A stretch of 64,000 nucleotides of DNA from Bacteroidota bacterium (GTDB lineage: Bacteria > Bacteroidota > Bacteroidia > Chitinophagales > UBA10324), in the NCBI GenBank assembly GCA_018267315.1, contig JAFDYS010000037.1:6107-70106 (forward strand). Direction: 5' to 3'. The notes beneath the pieces are model-generated. The model was not told where the DNA came from and searched no databases. It saw only the letters and a list, made by a program, of their open reading frames with translations. Position 1 is the stretch's first letter. Each line of letters starts with the position of its first letter. Shown piece after piece: positions 3,201 through 51,730 of the stretch. A program made the position numbers and the translations under genes.

Positions 3201-5840
3201 TTATTGAAGAGCACTGCTCTGGATATGGATGTTCCGGGATTTGATTATCACACCGGTTCAGGATTCATTCAGGCCATGGCGGCCATGGCAACATTTGCTG
3301 CACCAACACCGGTGATCACCAATCTCAGCTGGGATCCGCAGATTACTCCGGGAACACAGGTATTTGATGTGGTGGTGGAAGGAAGTTATTTCACCACTCA
3401 ATCACAAATCCTGTTCAGGGGCGAAGCGTTGCCCACTACGATGATCAGTTCATCGCAGCTGACCGCATCGGTTCCTGAATTTACCGGCAATCCTTCCATT
3501 CAGGTATATACAGAGCCCATCACACCCAGCGGAACGGATGGGGGATATTCCAATACAGTGTATTTCTTCTCACCGGTGAAAAAGCAGGTGAAGGTTACCG
3601 CAGATGATCAATCGAAGCGGTTTGGCGAAAAGATGCCGGTGCTTACAGCAAACATCCTGGTGGATGGCCAATCACTCGCAGAGGCAGGTCTTAGCATTTC
3701 AGATGTAGGATTGGATAGTTTGAAATTTGAAACACCGGCTACCAGTCAGAGTAATACGGGCATCTACTTCATTCGTCCGTCAGCAGATTCGGCTGATATC
3801 GGAATGGATAAATTTGAGTTGTACAACTACGAATTTGTTGATGGACTACTCACCATCAACAAGATGCCGCTTAAGATTACGCCGAAGCATCTCACGCTTA
3901 CCTACGGCGACAAGATTGAAAATGTAGCGTTTGATTATGATTATGACAGCACACAGATTTCTGAAGAAGATCGAAGCGGATTCCTTTCCTCCCTGGAGGT
4001 GGCCTACAAGCAGCCCATTTCCAATGCACTCGCGCTGGTAGATGCACGTGTGCTGGTGAACGGTCGCCCGCTGGTCAACCAGGATCTGGAAAACCTGGCT
4101 TTCCTTGCCACCTCTCAATCGGTAACGAATGCCAAACCGCTCGTGAATGCCAAGCCGCTGGTGAACTCCATTGACACAACATGGATTGTTGATGTGGCCG
4201 TTGAATCCATTTTCAATTACCAGGATGATTCTTCGTCAGCCCCTCTCGTGAATGCCAAGCCACTGGTAAATGCACGCGCATTGGTAAACGCCAAGCCATT
4301 AGTAAACGGAACTGCCGTAGTGAATGCCAAGCCGCTGGTAAACGGCTCTTCAGTTGTAAACTCCAGCACGGTAGGTGACAGCACGGGCAGTGATATTGCT
4401 GTGATTGTTGATGAAACCGATGTTGATGCAGAAGCAGACACCATCACCGAGTACATTCCCATTGTGATGGTGACCGGCACCACCGTTGGCGACTGGGCCA
4501 TTGTTCCGGCCGCCATGCTTACGAACAACTTTGACATCACCTATCAATTGGGAACCCTCACCATTCTTCCGGCCACGCTCACCATTAAGGCAGATGATAA
4601 GAATATTACCTACGGTGAATATCCTTCCTTCTCAGCTCAGATCACCGGGTATCAGTACAGCGATGCAGATAGTCCGATCGTGGCAGGTGGTCCGCTGTTC
4701 ACGGTGTATGATCAGTTGAATCAGGCCGTGAGCGGATTGATCCCGGGTGGAGTGTTCAGTATTGTCCCCTCGCAACTCGACCTGGTGCAGCCATCCAATT
4801 ATGTGGCCGAATACCAGGCCAGTGTTCTCAATGTGGGTCCGGCACCGCTAACGGTCACAGCCGATCTGAAGGGAATTTATAAGGGAGATCCGTTGCCTGC
4901 ATTCACTTCCACTATTGCCGGTTTTATCAGCGGAGGCAATAACAACATATTGTCCGGTCCGGCATATACGCTCAGTCCCGCTTACACAGGGGCAGCCGGA
5001 GTTTATAGCATTAATCCGTCATCGCTCGTACTTGAACAACCCGACAATTATTCCATCACTTATGCAAGCGGTTCATTGTATGTAAATCCGAAAGGAAATG
5101 GAGCGATGAAAATTTTTGTCTACATAGATTGTGTTGACACGCTGATCAATGACCCGGATGGCTTTACGTACGTGGCGCATTTCTCATACCAGAATAACAA
5201 CGCCACCCCAAGCTATATCCCCATCGGCAGTTACAACATGGTGACGGCTTTAAGCGGATCTTTCAGCGGAACACCGCCTGAAATTATTTACCCGGGAAGC
5301 GGAACATTTGATGTGAAGTTTAACGGGCAGCTGATTGCTTGGACGCTCAAGAGTTATGAAGGCAATCAGCTCAAGACATCCATGGCTGATGCAAGCGCTT
5401 CTACCTGCCGCTGTGGTGATGGTTGCGAATCAGAAAATGACAATGATAAGGTAGCGGTATGTCATCGTCCCAATGGCAGTCAATCCGAAGCTCATACTCT
5501 TTACGTTGATTTCAATGCCGTGCAGGCCCATCTCAATCATGGCGACTATCTCGGCTCTTGTTATATTGAAGAGAAAGCAGCTACAGGTGAGGGCATTGAC
5601 GGACTTTTTGCGTATCCCAATCCCACTTCGGGATTGGTGACACTTACTATCGATGGAGATGCACAAAACGCTCGGATTTCAGTCATTGATGTGCTGGGAA
5701 TGGAGTATCCGCTTTCAGTGGTTAATGTGAAGAACAACGGGCAATTGGAAATTGACATATCAAACCTAGCTGATGGCTTGTATCTGTTGCGTGTATCAAC
5801 TTCAGGCGGAGAAAAGACTCTGCCGTTACTCAAGCAGTAG
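243..5840 (+). CDS. Giant secreted multidomain protein: beta-helix-like N-terminus, Ig/PKD-like module, subtilisin-family (S8) peptidase domain, IPT/TIG-like module, several MBG-type repeats and a T9SS type-A C-terminal sorting domain
   Basis: 1865-aa ORF. S8 motifs are present: VGVISDSY (Asp), LQIVHDVAPNA (His) and GTSAAAPHAAGVAALL (Ser). There are repeated modules of the type L(K/T)(I/V)T(A/P)(D/K)...TYG. The C-terminus YPNPTSGLVTLTI...LADGLYLLRV is typical of T9SS CTDs. The signal-like segment MLMLLLSAGAMAQQ means the start may be 327 rather than 243. Confidence 0.85.
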   Translation: MFHRYYSPFRFAISGSLFRYFRVISSTCMLMLLLSAGAMAQQLQMTDFVLFGGDGSCPSGPGQNPPPSPGCAVQIGSLSSILSGNVGSYRLVKTLGTFSITGNIHSGGTVVLNNSNTINGNITAANSSNAGGTIFQSGKLTVLNGNADVNGNSSVKTGSVSGSVTHPSGTTYTGPFPGGGNIIGTPSLPVLPPMPPIISFPAAGVTNITSTQTISPGSFGNMTLGGYQTITFAGPGVYVLNSIHNTGMYNTFNLDFQGTSSGTIRIYVHGDVDLGKLFVNFPNGGDASRVYMEVHGNGSSCSYGPFAWNLTNGETNGRNSEWFGTVWVPYAGARIGAFTSQAAANFTGALWSGTQVNIVKRVNITHVVFQDCSTPPDVSAGPDKQLSCFLSEVQLLGSSSTPGVSYHWEVGNGGHILSGQDSPNPTVDAVGSYSLTVTDAGGCTATDQADVTFGSCILPYYPPPAGGKVPDLIGSELNSLYYLFGSIDPDSIKFIFNITNDSVWIEVISIEGQYNTLLSLLQTETYGLTDLISNGPNSLIITGKYPIAHLLKLDSLPQLINYVRPVFPPISNAGVAYSEGDSAQTSDLAREGFHVSGNGVKVGVISDSYNTLIGNNAQIDVLNDDLPGTGNAVHPNPVQVIKDYPYGIRTDEGRAMLQIVHDVAPNADLAFRTGFISAGDFAQGIRDLQQNGCDVIVDDVTYITEPFFQDGIVADAVDEVKADGVSYFSSAGNYGNKSYQSVFSGAPAPFGLSGSAHDFGGGDVYQSLTLPPGSYTVVLQWADSIYSLGQTQTGTKNDMDIFIADASGTTLFGFNRNNIGGDPIEVLPFTVTGGTAAANLIVVKSAGPDNVYFKYVIFRGEGTINEYNTGTSTIVGQANAAGAMAVGAVLYSNTPPFGVNPPTIASFSSVGGTPVNGVTRDKPDFAAPNGGNTTVYLGGVNIDGDPFPNFFGTSAAAPHAAGVAALLIDAKKKFYNEVLSPDEVKTLLKSTALDMDVPGFDYHTGSGFIQAMAAMATFAAPTPVITNLSWDPQITPGTQVFDVVVEGSYFTTQSQILFRGEALPTTMISSSQLTASVPEFTGNPSIQVYTEPITPSGTDGGYSNTVYFFSPVKKQVKVTADDQSKRFGEKMPVLTANILVDGQSLAEAGLSISDVGLDSLKFETPATSQSNTGIYFIRPSADSADIGMDKFELYNYEFVDGLLTINKMPLKITPKHLTLTYGDKIENVAFDYDYDSTQISEEDRSGFLSSLEVAYKQPISNALALVDARVLVNGRPLVNQDLENLAFLATSQSVTNAKPLVNAKPLVNSIDTTWIVDVAVESIFNYQDDSSSAPLVNAKPLVNARALVNAKPLVNGTAVVNAKPLVNGSSVVNSSTVGDSTGSDIAVIVDETDVDAEADTITEYIPIVMVTGTTVGDWAIVPAAMLTNNFDITYQLGTLTILPATLTIKADDKNITYGEYPSFSAQITGYQYSDADSPIVAGGPLFTVYDQLNQAVSGLIPGGVFSIVPSQLDLVQPSNYVAEYQASVLNVGPAPLTVTADLKGIYKGDPLPAFTSTIAGFISGGNNNILSGPAYTLSPAYTGAAGVYSINPSSLVLEQPDNYSITYASGSLYVNPKGNGAMKIFVYIDCVDTLINDPDGFTYVAHFSYQNNNATPSYIPIGSYNMVTALSGSFSGTPPEIIYPGSGTFDVKFNGQLIAWTLKSYEGNQLKTSMADASASTCRCGDGCESENDNDKVAVCHRPNGSQSEAHTLYVDFNAVQAHLNHGDYLGSCYIEEKAATGEGIDGLFAYPNPTSGLVTLTIDGDAQNARISVIDVLGMEYPLSVVNVKNNGQLEIDISNLADGLYLLRVSTSGGEKTLPLLKQ
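4027..4360 (+). repeat. In-frame tandem 18-bp (hexapeptide) repeats, consensus N-A-K-P-L-V, in two blocks inside the giant protease gene
   Basis: Translation reads ...ALVDARVLVNGRPLVNQ...NAKPLVNAKPLVNS...APLVNAKPLVNARALVNAKPLVNGTAVVNAKPLVNGSSVVNS. The DNA unit is aatgccaagccgctggta or variants. Confidence 0.8.
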
Positions 5841-44678: not shown

Positions 44679-44832
44679 GGTATTCTAATCCTGAACAATG
44701 GCAAATTACCCGCTTGATCAGGGCATCCATAATATTTGTTCTGAAATGCGAAAAAATGTTGCTCTGATCCCATTTCATACCATAGAAATCGGTCATTCGG
44801 AACTTTTTGTTTTATGAGGTATTGCCATTCTA

Positions 44833-44840
44833 TAAATTTG
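44833..44840 (+). promoter_or_regulatory. -7 promoter box (TAnnTTTG)
   Basis: TAAATTTG lies 26 nt upstream of the ATG at 44867. This supports that start over the ORF-track start at 44807. Confidence 0.45.
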
Positions 44841-44866
44841 ATAATTCCCAAAATGTATCCCGTACT

Positions 44867-46780
44867 ATGATTCGCTTTTACCCTTCTATCGCTTTTGCTT
44901 TGTTCATTTTGTCTGCATCTGTTTCAACCGCTCAAAATGTAGGCATTGGAATCTCAACTCCATTGCAGAAGCTGCACATCGGCGGCAACTCCAATACCTT
45001 GCGGATTGATGGGCTCAGTTCATCAGGTACCATGTTTGGTACCCCGGCAGCCAATGAACGCCTTTTATTCGTTAATGCCAATGGCGACCTGGAAGCTTTT
45101 ACCAATGGCACATCCGGGCAGGTCTTAACGATTAATGGCAGCGGGGTGCCTACATGGAGTACTTCCTCGGCTTCAGGGTGGTCATTATCGGGTAATTCAA
45201 TTGCCGGAACAGAATTTATTGGTACAACCAATACACAACCATTCATAATAAAAACCTCGAACGCCGAAAGGGCCAGGTTTTTAAGCGGTGGACAGCTTCT
45301 CATTAATCAAACAACTGCTAACCTATCTTCTCAATTGGTGGAAGCAACTGCTTCGGGTTCATTTACCACTTCCTTTGCCGGCTATTCTTCTTCAAGTTCA
45401 GGATACGGATTGATCGGATACAACTCAACAGCCGCCGGTAAAGCCGTGGTGGGATTAAACAATGCTTCTTCAGGAACCACGCAGGGCGGTTCAGGGGTTA
45501 CCGGGCAAATAGCACAAGGAGCGGGCAGTTCATCATATGGTGGATTTGGTGTGAGCGGGGTCAATACCAGTTCGTCGGGTTACGGTGTTTCCGGCATCGG
45601 TCAAAACACTGCAGGCATCACCTATTCCACAAGTGGTGCGGGTGGTATTTTTAATGGGACCTCACGGGGCTCTTACAGCGCAGCTAATACCGCACCCGGA
45701 AACGGATCATTTGCTTTTGGTGCCCAGGGCGTGGTGACAGTTACCCCTACTGGAACCGGTTATGCAGCAGGGCTACGGGGCGATGCCACGGCTACCGGTG
45801 GTGCTGCTGATGGTGTAGAAGGAATTACTGCGTCATCATCCGGAAGCGGAGTATATGGTGGTAACTCAGCTACGGGAGGAGATGCAATTTTAGGGTATTC
45901 TGCTGCTTCGAGTGGCGATGGATTTGGAGTATATGGCGTAAGTAACTCCTCCTCATCGGTTGGTGTGGCTGGTTATTCAGGTTCTTCCGGATTATTGTAC
46001 TTTACAAGTTCAGGAGCTGCGTTTACTGCCAGTTCTTTTGGCGCCACTGGTGTGGCCACTTCCTCAACCGGTACTGGTATATTTGGAATTGGTAATAATC
46101 TTTCTTCAGGTCAGACTTCCGCAAATGGATCGGGTGGGGCATTTAATGGAACCAAACTTGGTATTTATTCTTATTGCACTACGAATGCAAATGGCAACGC
46201 AGGTGGGTATTTCCAGAGTGGTGCGAGCAATTACGCATACATAGCTTATAGAAATAATACAAATGGCGGGACAGACTATGCAATAAATGGAACCGGCACC
46301 AAAGCAACAATTGTTTCAGACTTGCAGAATCAACCAGTGATCATGGCTTGTCCTGAGGCGCCTGAAATTTTGTTTGAGGATTATGGCACCGGTAAGTTAG
46401 CAGATGGCAAAGCGCATATTGATCTTGATCCCATTTTTGCAAAGAATGTGACTATTAATGATAAGCACCCGCTCAGAGTTTTTATTCAACTGGAAGGGGA
46501 ATGCAACGGAGTGTATGTAACCGATAAATCTGCGAATGGTTTCGATGTTAAAGAACTTAATTCGGGCACTTCGGATGTATCGTTCTCATGGCATGTCATA
46601 GCTAACAGGGCAGATAGTAAAGATGCGCAGGGGACAGTGATTTCTTACAATGCCGATAACCGTTGGCAACCAGCGCAAGGAATTATGAGTTCGGTAAATA
46701 TTCCGGCTCAGAAAAACAAGTCTAATATCTCGTTAAGAGAGTTGCCGAAAGATGATATTCAGCGAAGTACGCCCAGGTAG
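44867..46780 (+). CDS. Secreted tail-fibre-like or surface protein with a long Gly/Ser/Ala-rich repeat region
   Basis: Signal peptide (FALFILSASVSTAQ). The N-terminus NVGIGISTPLQKLHIGG... resembles N-termini of Bacteroidota proteins I recall as annotated tail-fibre-domain. The central part is about 300 aa of G/S/A/T-rich degenerate repeats. No T9SS CTD was recognised. Confidence 0.6.
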   Translation: MIRFYPSIAFALFILSASVSTAQNVGIGISTPLQKLHIGGNSNTLRIDGLSSSGTMFGTPAANERLLFVNANGDLEAFTNGTSGQVLTINGSGVPTWSTSSASGWSLSGNSIAGTEFIGTTNTQPFIIKTSNAERARFLSGGQLLINQTTANLSSQLVEATASGSFTTSFAGYSSSSSGYGLIGYNSTAAGKAVVGLNNASSGTTQGGSGVTGQIAQGAGSSSYGGFGVSGVNTSSSGYGVSGIGQNTAGITYSTSGAGGIFNGTSRGSYSAANTAPGNGSFAFGAQGVVTVTPTGTGYAAGLRGDATATGGAADGVEGITASSSGSGVYGGNSATGGDAILGYSAASSGDGFGVYGVSNSSSSVGVAGYSGSSGLLYFTSSGAAFTASSFGATGVATSSTGTGIFGIGNNLSSGQTSANGSGGAFNGTKLGIYSYCTTNANGNAGGYFQSGASNYAYIAYRNNTNGGTDYAINGTGTKATIVSDLQNQPVIMACPEAPEILFEDYGTGKLADGKAHIDLDPIFAKNVTINDKHPLRVFIQLEGECNGVYVTDKSANGFDVKELNSGTSDVSFSWHVIANRADSKDAQGTVISYNADNRWQPAQGIMSSVNIPAQKNKSNISLRELPKDDIQRSTPR

Positions 46781-48355: not shown

Positions 48356-51300
48356 ATGGAGTTCGATTTCAGTAAAATTGAAGAGGAGGTAAAAAAATTC
48401 TGGGATCAGGAGAATGTGTACCGCGTGGAGCCTGATCCCTCCCTGCCGAAGTATTATGTGCTCGACATGTTTCCGTATCCATCCGGTGCGGGACTGCATG
48501 TCGGTCATCCGCTGGGCTATATCGCCAGCGACATCTATGCACGCTACAAACGGCTTAAAGGTTTCAACGTACTGCACCCGATGGGTTATGATTCTTTCGG
48601 CCTGCCGGCTGAGCAATATGCGATTCAAACAGGTCAGCATCCGAAGATCACCACTGACAAAAACATCGAAACATTCCGGGCGCAAATGGATAAGCTCGGT
48701 TTTTCTTTTGACTGGAGCCGCGAAGTGCGGACGAGTGATCCTGCCTTTTACAAATGGACGCAGTGGATCTTCATCCGGCTCTTCCATTCCTGGTACAATT
48801 GTAAGACGGATAGGGCCGAACCTATTGAATCACTCATTCTCGAATTCGCACAAAACGGAAATGCAGGCGTGGATGCCGTGAGCGATCAGGTTTCCACCTT
48901 TTCGGCCGAGGAGTGGAGCAATTTTTCAGCAAAGCAAAAAAGCGACATACTACTTAATTATCGTCTCGCTTATATCGCCGATTCATGGGTGAACTGGTGT
49001 CCGGCCCTCGGCACCGTGCTGGCCAATGATGAAGTGAAAGACGGCGTGAGCGAGCGCGGCGGATATCCGGTTGAACGGAAATTGATGAAGCAGTGGTCGC
49101 TCCGCATCACCGCATATGCTGAAAGATTATTACAAGGTCTTGAGAAAATTGACTGGAGCGATTCACTCAAGGAATCGCAGCGCAACTGGATCGGGAAGAG
49201 TGAAGGATGCAGTGTGAGGTTTGAGGTGAACGGTGAAGGTGGCACCCCTCTCCACAGGAGAGGGGATGGGGGTGAGGAAGACACCTTGAATGTTCGCAAG
49301 CCCGGTGGATATCTTACCGGTGAAAAGTCTCTGGGCTCCATACTGCGTGACAACGCCAGGGAAAACCGACAGGCACCCACTGAAGCAGAAGAAATGCTTT
49401 GGCAAAATATTCGAAACAGAAAACTGGAATACAAGTTTCGTAGGCAACATCCGGTTGCAAACTTTATCGCTGATTTTGTTTGCCTGCAGAAGAAGCTGAT
49501 TGTGGAACTGGATGGAAATGATCATAAGCAGAATAAAGAATATGATCATGAAAGAACACGGGAGCTCGAAAGACTGGGCTATAAGGTCATACGATTTTGG
49601 AATGATGAAGTATTAAAAAATTTGTCGGGTGTGCTCAGCAAGATCAGGGATGAGCTCAAAGCCCGGCCTGACCTCCTCACCCCTGACCCCTCTCCTGAGG
49701 AGAGGGGAATTGATCCCTCTTCTCCGGAAAAACTCTTCATTGAAGTCTTCACCACGCGCCCCGATACCATCTTCGGCGCCACCTTCATCACGCTGGCTCC
49801 GGAGCATGAACTCGTGGGGAAGATCACCACACCCGAATACAAAAAGCAGGTGGATGAATATGTTCACTATGCGAAGAACCGCAGCGAGCGCGACCGCATG
49901 GCTGACGTGAAAAAAGTGACCGGGCAATTTAGCGGCGCATATGTTGAACATCCTTTTTCAGGAAAACCGATACCCGTTTGGATCGGTGAATACGTGCTCG
50001 CAACGTACGGCACCGGCGCCGTGATGGGTGTACCGGGTCATGATGAACGTGATCACCGCTTTGCTTCACATTTCGGGTTGCCCATAGTTTCCATTTTGAA
50101 AGATGTGGACGTCACAGAAAAATCATTTGACGACAAGCAGGGCATTCTCGCCAACTCTGATTTTCTGAACGGGCTCGAAGTGAAAGACGCCATCAGCAAA
50201 ACCATTGATGAGATTGAGAAGAAAGGAATCGGTGCTGGCAAGGTGAACTACAAACTACGCGATGCCATTTTCGGCAGGCAGCGTTACTGGGGCGAACCTA
50301 TTCCTATCTATTATGATGAAGCCAGCATTCCAAACACGGTAGAAGAGAACGAACTGCCGGTGGTGCTTCCCGAGGTAGATAAGTATCTGCCCACCGAAAC
50401 CGGCGAGCCCCCGCTGGCACGTGCGAAAGACTGGAAGTACAAAGGAAAGTTTGACTATGAGCATACCACCATGCCCGGCTGGGCCGGCTCATCGTGGTAT
50501 TACATCCGCTACGGCGATCCGCACAATCAAAATGAATTCGCCTCGCAGAAGGCGATCAACTACTGGCAGAATGTGGATCTGTATGTGGGCGGTGATGAAC
50601 ATGCCACCGGTCACCTGCTCTACGTTCGCTTCTGGACCAAATTTCTTTTCGACCTCGGGCTTATTCCATTCGATGAGCCGGCGAAGAAATTGGTGAATCA
50701 GGGGAAGATACAGGGCAGGACCTTATTGATAAATGAGGAACTTGTACAAAACCCAAGGACCCAAGAAATAGTCTATCATGCTTTTTTATCTGACGGAATA
50801 AAAGGTAAGGTATCCCAATACAAACTTGATGGAAGCTTTTATACTCGGCAAACGCAATGGCCAATTCGTCCGCCATTAATATCCTATGTGGATAAGGATA
50901 GAGAAATTCTATATGAAGAGAATCTTAAGAAAGCAATTGAAGAAAATGGTGACATAGCATTCAAAAAGGAATCAGCGCAGAAAATTGAATGGCTGATAGA
51001 ATCTGAAACGAACAAGAAGTACATCAAACTATCATGGGCTCCTGATAAAATGTCCAAGCGCTATGGCAACGTCGTCAACCCTGATGATGTTGTAACGAAG
51101 TACGGTGCCGACTGCTTCCGCCTCTACGAAATGTTTCTCGGTCCCATTGAGCAACACAAACCGTGGGACACCAAAGGCATTGACGGCTGCTTCCGTTTTC
51201 TCAAAAAATTCTGGCGGCTTTTTAACAACGAGGAGGGCAAATGGCTGGTGAATGAGGAAGAGCCAACGAAAGAGGAACTGAAGATTCTGCACCGCACCAT

Positions 51301-51730
51301 CAAAAAGGTGGGAGAGGATATTGAATCCATGTCGTTCAACACCTGCGTGAGCGCTATGATGATTTGCGTGAATGAACTCTCGCAACTCGATTGCCACAAG
51401 CGAAAAACCCTGGAGCCCATGCTGCTCCTGCTCTCGCCATTCGCTCCTTTTATTTCAGAAAAACTCTGGCAACAACTGGGGCACAAGGAGAGCATTGTGA
51501 AAGCGAAATTTCCTCAGCACGATGAATCATTGCTGGTTGAAACCTCATTTGAATATCCTGTTGCCGTTAATGGCAAAACCCGGGTGAAGATGAATTTCGA
51601 TTTGAATCTCTCCAATGATCAGATCGAGAAAGAAGTGAACTCCGCCGAAGCCCTCCAGAAATACTTCGAAGGCAAAACTCCCAAGAAAGTTATTGTGGTG
51701 AAGGGAAGAATGATCAATGTGGTGGTTTGA
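48356..51730 (+). CDS. leuS: Leucine-tRNA ligase carrying an in-frame insertion of about 155 aa (DUF559 endonuclease domain)
   Basis: Class I motifs PYPSGAGLHVGHPLGY (HIGH) and DKMSKRYGN (KMSKS). Also WIGKSEG, TTRPDT, GTGAVMGVPGHDERD, RQRYWGEP. The 1124-aa ORF is uninterrupted, longer than my recollection of typical bacterial LeuRS lengths (roughly 860-950 aa). Confidence 0.93.
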   Translation: MEFDFSKIEEEVKKFWDQENVYRVEPDPSLPKYYVLDMFPYPSGAGLHVGHPLGYIASDIYARYKRLKGFNVLHPMGYDSFGLPAEQYAIQTGQHPKITTDKNIETFRAQMDKLGFSFDWSREVRTSDPAFYKWTQWIFIRLFHSWYNCKTDRAEPIESLILEFAQNGNAGVDAVSDQVSTFSAEEWSNFSAKQKSDILLNYRLAYIADSWVNWCPALGTVLANDEVKDGVSERGGYPVERKLMKQWSLRITAYAERLLQGLEKIDWSDSLKESQRNWIGKSEGCSVRFEVNGEGGTPLHRRGDGGEEDTLNVRKPGGYLTGEKSLGSILRDNARENRQAPTEAEEMLWQNIRNRKLEYKFRRQHPVANFIADFVCLQKKLIVELDGNDHKQNKEYDHERTRELERLGYKVIRFWNDEVLKNLSGVLSKIRDELKARPDLLTPDPSPEERGIDPSSPEKLFIEVFTTRPDTIFGATFITLAPEHELVGKITTPEYKKQVDEYVHYAKNRSERDRMADVKKVTGQFSGAYVEHPFSGKPIPVWIGEYVLATYGTGAVMGVPGHDERDHRFASHFGLPIVSILKDVDVTEKSFDDKQGILANSDFLNGLEVKDAISKTIDEIEKKGIGAGKVNYKLRDAIFGRQRYWGEPIPIYYDEASIPNTVEENELPVVLPEVDKYLPTETGEPPLARAKDWKYKGKFDYEHTTMPGWAGSSWYYIRYGDPHNQNEFASQKAINYWQNVDLYVGGDEHATGHLLYVRFWTKFLFDLGLIPFDEPAKKLVNQGKIQGRTLLINEELVQNPRTQEIVYHAFLSDGIKGKVSQYKLDGSFYTRQTQWPIRPPLISYVDKDREILYEENLKKAIEENGDIAFKKESAQKIEWLIESETNKKYIKLSWAPDKMSKRYGNVVNPDDVVTKYGADCFRLYEMFLGPIEQHKPWDTKGIDGCFRFLKKFWRLFNNEEGKWLVNEEEPTKEELKILHRTIKKVGEDIESMSFNTCVSAMMICVNELSQLDCHKRKTLEPMLLLLSPFAPFISEKLWQQLGHKESIVKAKFPQHDESLLVETSFEYPVAVNGKTRVKMNFDLNLSNDQIEKEVNSAEALQKYFEGKTPKKVIVVKGRMINVVV
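49245..49280. repeat. Left terminal inverted repeat of the leuS cassette (contains hairpin CCCCTCTCC-ACA-GGAGAGGGG)
   Basis: cccctctccacaggagaggggatgggggtgaggaag, translated as (T)PLHRRGDGGEE(D). Confidence 0.8.
49672..49707. repeat. Right terminal inverted repeat of the leuS cassette (contains hairpin CCCCTCTCC-TGA-GGAGAGGGG)
   Basis: cctcctcacccctgacccctctcctgaggagagggg. Its reverse complement is cccctctcctcaggagaggggtcaggggtgaggagg. Translated as LLTPDPSPEERG. Confidence 0.8.

Follow-up and report, generated by a model that had tools for sequence, protein, structure and literature searches.

The 64,000-nucleotide stretch of DNA analyzed here (the window; Bacteroidota bacterium, Chitinophagales, GenBank assembly GCA_018267315.1, contig JAFDYS010000037.1, positions 6,107 to 70,106) contains a leuS gene, encoding leucyl-tRNA synthetase (LeuRS), that carries a complete DUF559 nuclease domain in its reading frame, bounded by inverted repeats. 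On balance, we consider it likely that this insert is a selfish nuclease cassette that is translated as a part of LeuRS and whose repeats encode its linkers. It belongs to a cassette family that is also found free between genes, within many genes, and as palindromic derivatives lacking the nuclease. An earlier reading of the letters alone (the sequence-only reading) had noted the insert in this one gene, and it proves not to be a singular event: more than 100 leuS genes of Bacteroidota, including those of cultured strains, have an insert at this very site, and the same kind of cassette is found in many other genes. The phenomenon is general rather than singular.

The host gene looks functional despite the insert, as judged from its sequence. 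All Pfam domains of the window protein are those of LeuRS (tRNA-synt_1, the editing domain, and Anticodon_1), apart from DUF559 and its relative REase_MTES_1575, and the protein scores 886 bits against the NCBIfam leuS equivalog TIGR00396 (cut-off 548). The HVGH, KMSK, and TTRPDT/editing motifs are all intact. From the start of NWIGKSEG to the start of TTRPDT (amino acids, aa, 466-471) there are 189 residues in the window protein versus 25-33 in most insert-free LeuRS (44 in two of them). When aligned to the solved LeuRS of Thermus thermophilus, the aligned segments end at residue 239 and restart at residue 242 with a two-residue turn between them; therefore, the extra residues are located at the turn of a beta-hairpin. 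The empty allele reads ...RFEV[T]-GTEAASSEKL..., and the filled allele reads ...RFEV[N GEGGTPLHRRGDGGEE ... DUF559 ... LLTPDPSPEER]GIDPSSPEKL.... The sequence-only reading had set the insert at 49245-49707; the insert itself is confirmed, and comparison with the empty allele gives slightly wider bounds, 49229-49705. The insert has neither a start codon of its own at the 5' end nor a stop codon.

The inserted domain is assigned to DUF559 (PF04480) by Pfam over aa 331-434, with an E-value of 4.5e-38 and 129.9 bits (cut-off 20.6), and the match covers profile positions 4-108 of 109. A match to NCBIfam PRK09767 (E=2e-26) stays under the equivalog cut-off of that family. By sequence, the domain is 48% identical to PDB 3hrl (E=3e-26). 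When the AlphaFold model of the domain was used in a fold search, 3hrl was again the best match (template modeling score, TM, 0.91), the catalytic domain of I-Bth0305I was the second-best PDB match (TM 0.62-0.75), and AbaSI/PvuRts1I and Vsr followed (Vsr 0.55). Several mitoribosomal proteins of Toxoplasma and Tetrahymena are also among the fold matches to DUF559. The conserved acidic and histidine pattern of the Vsr-like fold (D...E-x-D-G-x-x-H) is present in the window copy, and the residues W26, R40, Q42, D51, E62, D64, G65, H68, and D75, the putative active-site residues among them, are 99-100% conserved among 108 LeuRS-embedded domains. The DUF559 domain is predicted to adopt the Vsr-like restriction-endonuclease fold and to be a nuclease.

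The AlphaFold model of the whole LeuRS has a pLDDT of 75.9, with a confident synthetase body. The core of the insert (aa 320-443) is folded, with a pLDDT of ~70-90. The linkers on both sides (aa 294-319 and 444-457) are of low confidence, with a pLDDT below 50, and leave the body between strands 281-292 and 461-466. According to the model, disordered linkers attach a Vsr-like domain to the tip of a beta-hairpin on the surface. Together with the unbroken reading frame, the Pfam assignment, and the Thermus alignment, this bears out the sequence-only reading in its main anatomical claims, namely that an intact DUF559 domain sits in frame in leuS, that universal LeuRS motifs lie on either side of it, and that its position is a surface beta-hairpin bordering the CP1 editing domain.

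Between the window and a related locus (L003), dN/dS is ~0.10 for the insert (159 codons) versus 0.15 for the host, and the insert is under purifying selection. The G+C content at third codon positions is 0.44 in the nuclease core and 0.56 in the host. Signs of decay are found as well. In a Polaribacter lineage, the in-frame copy has lost its hairpin linkers and its ELDGxxH motif has become EFSGKEE, and in Cellulophaga and Gillisia the domain is intact and the repeats have decayed. We note that an 'Arenicella sp.' metagenome-assembled genome (MAG; L023) and a Polaribacter sp. (L024) have almost the same leuS, in each case with a degenerate DUF559 relic that lacks hairpins; the L023 contig bears a gammaproteobacterial label and was probably mis-binned.

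The insert is bounded by a 39-nt inverted repeat of 85% complementarity, in keeping with the inverted repeats that the sequence-only reading had reported, and the coordinates of both arms are listed with the other features in Table 1. The palindrome CCCCTCTCC-nnn-GGAGAGGGG occurs twice in the 64-kb window, once in each arm, versus 0 occurrences expected by chance, and in the predicted RNA fold the two arms pair as a stem of ~35-40 bp (-193 kcal/mol, z=-5.8). When the window is compared with L003, 3 of 78 arm positions are changed versus 94 of 385 in the inner part of the insert (24% divergence; p=6.5e-6). At third codon positions, 2 of 26 differ in the arms and 61 of 128 in the inner part; the arms are therefore constrained as nucleic acid, beyond their coding role. 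Nearly all inserts have recognizable linker peptides, for example LTPNPSPKERG before the domain and PLSFGEGQGGEA or PLLGRGAGGEA after it, and the peptides of the two sides are reverse-complement readings of a single DNA motif.

Table 1. Features of the leuS locus in the window (coordinates are window positions).
Feature	Position	Strand	Description and basis
leuS (leucine--tRNA ligase)	48356..51730	+	One unbroken open reading frame, 1124 aa, insert included; Pfam, NCBIfam
Host motif NWIGKSEG	49184..49207	+	aa 277-284, upstream of the insert; aligns to Thermus LeuRS up to residue 239
Complete in-frame insert	49229..49705	+	aa 292-450, ~159 residues, 474-477 bp; missing from the syntenic L004/P0004; protein and DNA alignments
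N-terminal linker	49229..49345	+	aa 292-330, predicted disordered; holds the conserved pre-domain segment PGGYLTGEKSLGSIL; compared across ~100 LeuRS
Left arm	49245..49283	.	Hairpin CCCCTCTCC-ACA-GGAGAGGGG (49245-49265), then extension GGGGGTGAGGAAG; encodes linker TPLHRRGDGGEE; 2/39 nt differ from L003
DUF559 (Vsr-like PD-(D/E)xK) core, predicted nuclease	49346..49669	+	aa 331-438; FIADF, VELDGNDH, RFWN; Pfam, PDB 3hrl, fold search
Right arm	49669..49707	.	Extension CCTCCTCACCCC, then hairpin CCCCTCTCC-TGA-GGAGAGGGG (49687-49707); encodes LLTPDPSPEERG; 1/39 nt differs from L003
Host strand FIEVF and TTRPDT editing-site motif	49736..49768	+	aa 461-471, LeuRS continues here; alignment to Thermus LeuRS restarts at residue 242

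Arms of 30-49 nt were found in 14 of 24 loci. In the usual layout, the left arm has an extension (CCTCACCCC) on the outside and then a hairpin (CCCCTCTCC-nnn-GGAGAGGGG), and the right arm mirrors the left. In the clade of the window copy these modules are swapped, with the hairpin outermost and the extension adjoining the open reading frame (ORF). The arm sequence varies between lineages; for example, L016, L017, L019, and L029 have CCCCCTCC/GGAGGGGG with CCTCCCCC/GGGGGAGG. Even so, the two arms of a cassette stay mutually complementary and internally palindromic. In most loci, the span from arm to arm is not a multiple of three (463 nt in the window).

Comparison with relatives identifies both filled and empty sites. 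The same insert is present in the closest relatives, P0002 (89% identity, from a MAG of Chitinophagales) and P0003 (82%). It is missing from P0004 and P0005, whose host part is ~89% identical when the hypervariable region described below is excluded. The gene order FtsX - leuS - acetyltransferase is common to the window, L001, L003, and L004, and these four loci are therefore orthologous. The sequence-only reading had proposed a search for empty sites in relatives, and the syntenic L004 and the motif spacing in most insert-free LeuRS show that there are such sites. Among the 120 best LeuRS matches, 99 have DUF559 at the identical alignment column (site A) and 21 are empty there; a second leuS site (near reference residue 535) is occupied in eight proteins and a third (near 720) in one, and five proteins carry two inserts. 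The site-A inserts form 22 clusters at 60% identity, and there are many pairs of hosts (e.g., P0031 and P0068) that are ~90% identical with inserts only ~45% identical. On a neighbor-joining tree built from the host part alone, Fitch parsimony gives at least 8 presence/absence changes and at least 34 insert-lineage changes. Lineages c3 and c17, whose inserts are ~45% identical to each other, are interleaved within a tight host clade (87-93% identical). The closest relative of the third-site insert of P0094 is the site-A insert of the same protein (65%). Judging from these alignments, the insert is patchy and polyphyletic, which does not fit one old fixed domain. The sequence-only reading had named such a domain, carried without repeats by all relatives, as a scenario that would speak against a cassette; instead, the insert is found at several sites and in many lineages, most of which have repeats.

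Two further candidate interpretations of these comparisons were rejected. The insert is identical in the window and L001 with a host dS of 0.30, which could be taken as a recent transfer; this dS stems from a pair of hypervariable patches in the host, and the sequence directly beside the insert is nearly identical too. Precise loss, suggested by empty alleles nested within a filled clade of the neighbor-joining tree, vanishes when the hypervariable region is excluded. This region of LeuRS (aa 783-907, window 50702-51076) has a pLDDT below 50 and is not modeled by AlphaFold. It is hypervariable even against the 98-99% identical L001, with 53-64 mismatches per 100 nt versus 0-5 in its flanks. 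P0003 has the same version of it as the empty allele P0004, and leuS is therefore a recombination mosaic there.

The distribution was also assessed with an independent DNA-pattern scan of species-representative genomes, which did not rely on gene calling. Site-A carriers that are cultured or named include Cellulophaga baltica DSM 24729, Gillisia mitskevichiae, G. marina, Dysgonomonas sp. 521, and Maribacter halichondriae, and site-A MAGs belong to Flavobacteriales, Chitinophagaceae, Cytophagales, Cyclobacteriaceae, Bacteroidales, and Pedobacter. Inserts at the second site (site B) were found in Mucilaginibacter and Ferruginibacter. In 23 of the 23 scanned leuS loci, DUF559 shares a stop-free frame with both flanking LeuRS motifs. 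The linkers vary in length from a few to ~130 residues, yet the frame is kept through both junctions in every lineage. In the chromosome of Maribacter halichondriae Hal144 (L029), the leuS with its site-A cassette has two frame breaks at homopolymer runs (~4311 and ~5250), which are either sequencing errors or signs of a decaying gene, and a solo arm CCCCCTCC-TCG-GGAGGGGG-CCAGGGGAGGTCCGT... at ~5190-5240.

The same cassette is found in many other genes and contexts. An exhaustive HMMER search with the insert returned 24,718 relatives. The best 150 cluster representatives comprise 87 small free-standing proteins, 8 LeuRS, 28 proteins with the domain in the middle, and 27 with the domain near one end. 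The hosts identified by Pfam are IleRS, Lhr helicase, RecJ (one from an Alphaproteobacteria MAG), CinA, UDP-GlcNAc 2-epimerase, class I/II aminotransferase, CCA/poly(A) polymerase, GT2 glycosyltransferase, SpoIIE phosphatases, PriA, and several DNA methyltransferases; sequence inspection added chorismate synthase (AroC), MiaA, LipB, RdgB, RecO, and a ValRS-like enzyme. Mid-protein cassettes with hairpin-coded linkers are present in IleRS, Lhr, RecJ, CinA, AroC, MiaA, LipB, RdgB, RecO, MetH, the epimerase, and the aminotransferase, and in several hosts the insert splits a host domain in two. In L093 (3424-7683, minus strand), a full DUF559 cassette with typical arms lies within the activation domain of a B12-dependent MetH of 1420 aa. 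Some of these proteins have fusion names in IMG, such as 'lipoate-protein ligase B/very-short-patch-repair endonuclease'. One protein (P0190) consists of three tandem DUF559 domains, and in another (P0274) a biotin-lipoyl domain, a DUF559 cassette, and PriA follow each other in a single read-through, where the cassette appears to have fused two genes. A phage origin was rejected, as DUF559 was found in only 3 of 50,697 phage records.

The arms also occur without the nuclease. A metagenome scan with the arm motif matched at least 120 stretches, of which 80 loci were examined. Among the matches listed, DUF559 lies beside an arm in only ~10 of these 80 loci, and the remaining loci have arms that are solo or in tandem, or inverted pairs of 120-270 bp without an ORF that resemble MITEs (miniature transposable elements with inverted repeats). 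Solo and paired arms are scattered over genomes, where 10 kb can contain up to 4, and among the matches listed 18 of 100 arms lie inside long open frames, including those of IspG and a P-type ATPase. The ORF-less pairs, for example at L119 8509-8782, L159 1872-2032, and L120 569-685, enclose 50-200 bp of AT-rich sequence and look like MITE-like derivatives of the cassette family. Solo arms in frame are seen in IspG (GcpE; L095), a P-type ATPase (L152), and an alpha-L-rhamnosidase (L089), where they add ~12 residues, e.g. SLTPNPSPGERG. Variable inserts of 30-46 aa at LeuRS reference positions 665/672 were considered as solo arms and rejected as ordinary hypervariable sequence. In L085, one composite unit of ~90 nt (a hairpin, a T-run, and a long hairpin) stands on each side of a free-standing DUF559 gene in direct orientation, at 1396-1480 and 1858-1944; a PIN/VapB toxin-antitoxin pair adjoins it.

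These observations can be joined in the following mechanism. The cassette would be transcribed and translated as an internal domain of the essential LeuRS, with its GC-rich arms read as flexible linkers rich in Pro, Ser, Gly, and Glu. The nuclease would hang from the synthetase as an independent domain, and LeuRS would keep working. The cassette would be copied into empty alleles by nuclease-initiated recombination, and resident cassettes would be replaced via the conserved repeat arms; copying and arm-mediated replacement together would account for the turnover at the same site without a leuS-specific enzyme and without target-site duplications. The parts of this proposal differ in strength. 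We have little doubt that the insert originated as a mobile element, and a selfish element that moved many times is indicated because the family occupies many lineages and sites and unrelated host genes, and has nuclease-less derivatives and degenerate relics. It is also very likely that the insert is made in LeuRS and kept there in the mature protein, because it has no start at its 5' end and no stop of its own, is under purifying selection in the LeuRS frame, and keeps the frame in every lineage. The sequence-only reading had left a choice between a tolerated graft and removal by an unrecognized route, and the preserved frame favors the former, tolerated and translated, over the latter. That spread and turnover proceed by nuclease-initiated recombination rather than classical transposition is something we hold only tentatively, and the window copy may or may not still be active, with the balance leaning slightly towards inactivity.

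Several points weigh against this reading. We infer the retention of the insert in the mature protein from the conservation of the reading frame. The nuclease activity of DUF559 is predicted only, from sequence and fold. The set of 120 LeuRS is biased towards carriers since the query held the insert. For 42 of the 99 site-A inserts, judged by identity, the nearest site-A insert from a different lineage is no closer than some DUF559 outside LeuRS, which argues against a strictly leuS-specific homing enzyme. For host pairs with different insert lineages, identity next to the junctions is 0.82 vs 0.91, a modest difference that makes weak indirect evidence of co-converted flanks. Classical homing endonuclease genes do not feature inverted repeats. 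The active site is kept almost universally and the insert is widely retained among Bacteroidota, which would suit a host-beneficial domain as well. The sequence-only reading had raised the prospect of further copies, and in the 64-kb window a six-frame and motif scan found no DUF559 or arm motif beyond those of the leuS insert. Near-identical copies in different contexts were not found either, the best cross-context identity being 0.64-0.73 in a representative library that collapses close relatives; therefore, all evidence for mobility is old and phylogenetic. Recent movement between genes was rejected on the same values, a weak test given this library.

The main rival to a cassette spread by recombination is a transposon-like mechanism. 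Here the repeats would be true transposon ends, DUF559, alone or with host factors, would move the cassette and its MITE-like derivatives to near-random targets, and the copies within genes would be survivors that landed in frame in surface loops. The length of the inverted repeats in 14 of the 24 loci, the dispersed ORF-less pairs and solo arms, the very diverse host genes, the intergenic position of most family members (87 of the best 150), and the lack of monophyly of site-A inserts all speak for such a mechanism. In addition, 'DUF559 domain-containing protein' is among the coding sequences enriched for flanking inverted repeats (Milman et al., PMC9881135). However, a nuclease of ~110 aa has no strand-transfer or integrase domain, and random insertion would hardly place 99 of 108 LeuRS inserts at one alignment column. 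No consistent target-site duplication or direct repeat flanks the arms in 12 loci, and the empty allele of the window's insert is too diverged to judge this; near-identical copies at different loci are missing. Unlike fixed transposon ends, the arm modules also differ in their arrangement about the ORF between the window clade and the free-standing copy. We consider this mechanism unlikely, although it survives better than the other alternatives.

An ancient insertion that has become useful to Bacteroidota LeuRS, for example by binding nucleic acid or moonlighting as a nuclease, is less likely than either selfish-element reading, and we regard it as improbable. Such domestication would agree with the active-site residues kept in nearly all 108 inserts, the dN/dS of ~0.1, the occurrence across many Bacteroidota orders including cultured strains, and the intact domain of Cellulophaga and Gillisia whose repeats have decayed. 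It is difficult to reconcile with close orthologs that do without the insert, with at least 22 unrelated lineages at three sites interleaved on the host tree, and with the same cassette in dozens of unrelated proteins and free between genes. Moreover, a protein domain would have no need of arms conserved at the nucleotide level, and the degenerate Polaribacter copy is tolerated.

Removal of the insert before the enzyme matures, either by RNA processing at the arm stem followed by ligation or by excision at the protein level, seems very improbable. The stem of ~35-40 bp, with the folding energy given above, would bring the junctions together, and the complementarity of the arms is conserved. 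RNA excision is nevertheless unlikely because the frame is kept in 99 proteins and 23 of 23 loci despite variable linkers, which would be needless if the RNA were excised, because the arm span is mostly not a multiple of three, so that excision at the stem base (463 nt here) would shift the frame, and because Rfam gives no intron or ribozyme match. A nuclease that lacks its own 5' start codon and yet is under purifying selection in the LeuRS frame also speaks against removal. An intron or ribozyme was rejected specifically, with no Rfam match better than E=0.1 and a continuous ORF in all 23 loci, and so was an intein: Pfam finds no Hint domain, the Cys/Ser/Thr...His-Asn signature is absent, and the junctions read ...RFEV/NGEGG and ...PEER/GIDP, with V/N and R/G as junction residues. 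These results are in line with the sequence-only reading, which had noted neither an intein nor an intron signature. A programmed-inversion switch or a chimeric misassembly is hardly credible: DUF559 genes are enriched among predicted inversion targets (PMC9881135), but an in silico flip of the segment places a stop at aa 328 of an essential gene, and inversion was rejected on this ground. The identical protein is recorded on 69 contigs, and close relatives that bear the insert are found in cultured isolates and in assemblies made independently by NCBI, JGI, and Logan.

The selfish cassette that we favor can be compared with several known systems. Homing endonuclease genes and 'fractured genes' have been described (PMC2677866), and Vsr, DUF559, and the structure of I-Bth0305I have been grouped together (PMC3424549). 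As with Vsr-like EDxHD homing genes, the leuS cassette is a small nuclease gene in a conserved essential gene, patchy at one exact site (99 filled, 21 empty, at least 8 changes), with relics, and it has a fold in common with I-Bth0305I. Unlike them, the leuS insert is neither carried by an intron or intein nor free-standing between genes; it remains within the reading frame and, apparently, the protein, its ends are hairpin-containing inverted repeats, and its copies do not form a target-specific clade (42/99, identity-based). Of the homing or addiction strategy put forward by the sequence-only reading, homing in the strict sense is not established, and the arms are part of a wider palindromic family.

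Rickettsia palindromic elements (RPEs) are known for in-frame insertion in many genes (review PMC10969869). Like RPEs, the family described here places palindromes in frame in unrelated housekeeping genes, to be translated as surface peptides compatible with the fold, and its nuclease-less arms and paired arms behave alike in IspG, P-type ATPase, and LeuRS. Unlike RPEs, the cassette carries a complete, selected nuclease gene of ~110 codons, its repeats are unrelated in sequence, and it is found in Bacteroidota and other phyla, not in Rickettsia. With MITEs and RPEs it has in common terminal inverted repeats in many contexts and in-frame positions in unrelated genes, but it is not a non-autonomous element devoid of an enzyme gene, as it holds an intact DUF559 ORF.

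In the repetitive extragenic palindrome (REP) system, the RAYT enzyme is an HUH tyrosine transposase, REPs are extragenic, and a single enzyme gene is flanked by hairpin repeats that are also dispersed alone. REP/RAYT (REPIN) elements and the cassette are alike in that the enzyme gene is flanked by palindromic hairpins that also occur without the enzyme, and they differ in that the enzyme here is a PD-(D/E)xK protein and the unit lies inside coding sequence and is apparently translated. Inteins are likewise in-frame selfish insertions at conserved sites of essential genes, often with an endonuclease, but the cassette has no Hint domain or splice junctions, and nothing suggests protein splicing. 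Free-standing DUF559 proteins (3hrl from Neisseria; the PRK09767 family of E. coli) have the same domain, and many of them have hairpin-coded tails or flanking hairpin units, but they are separate small genes rather than an internal domain of LeuRS. No biochemical function for the DUF559 family is established in the papers searched. The cassette combines features of homing genes, RPEs, and REP/RAYT, without the splicing vehicle of classical homing genes, and there is a fair chance that it is a class of its own.

In the searchable full-text literature, whose coverage leaves most subscription journals outside, we came across no account of synthetases that contain DUF559 or of nuclease cassettes in frame, and the cassette looks like a widespread and undescribed selfish element. 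With more reserve than the individual steps above, we suggest that DUF559 cassettes could form a distinct class of bacterial selfish elements that lack a 5' start and a stop codon and whose hairpin terminal repeats double as linker code. They would be translated and left unspliced in LeuRS, IleRS, and MetH, with the host gene providing expression and protection from deletion, and their nuclease-less derivatives would be RPE-like. The nuclease would act on hairpin or cruciform ends or on empty sites, leading to copying and cassette exchange.

Elsewhere in the window, a gene at 44807-46780 encodes a 657-aa repeat protein rich in Gly, Ser, and Thr. It has 30-97 mismatches per 100 nt against L001 and L003, with nearly identical neighbors, and is probably a fast-evolving surface protein.

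If our reading is true, staying in the protein on built-in linkers would be a third route, besides introns and inteins, by which a selfish nuclease gene can live in an essential gene. The large DUF559 family, with its 24,718 relatives, would gain a biological context, and it would be linked to widespread in-frame palindromic repeats. To our knowledge, the enzyme that mobilizes RPE-like elements has not been identified, and DUF559 would be a candidate for it. The finding also accounts for many odd 'fusion' annotations in databases. A class I aminoacyl-tRNA synthetase would be seen to tolerate, at its CP1 hairpin, a domain that is folded and ~160 residues long, which would be useful for protein engineering. 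As cultured carriers exist, these ideas are directly testable.

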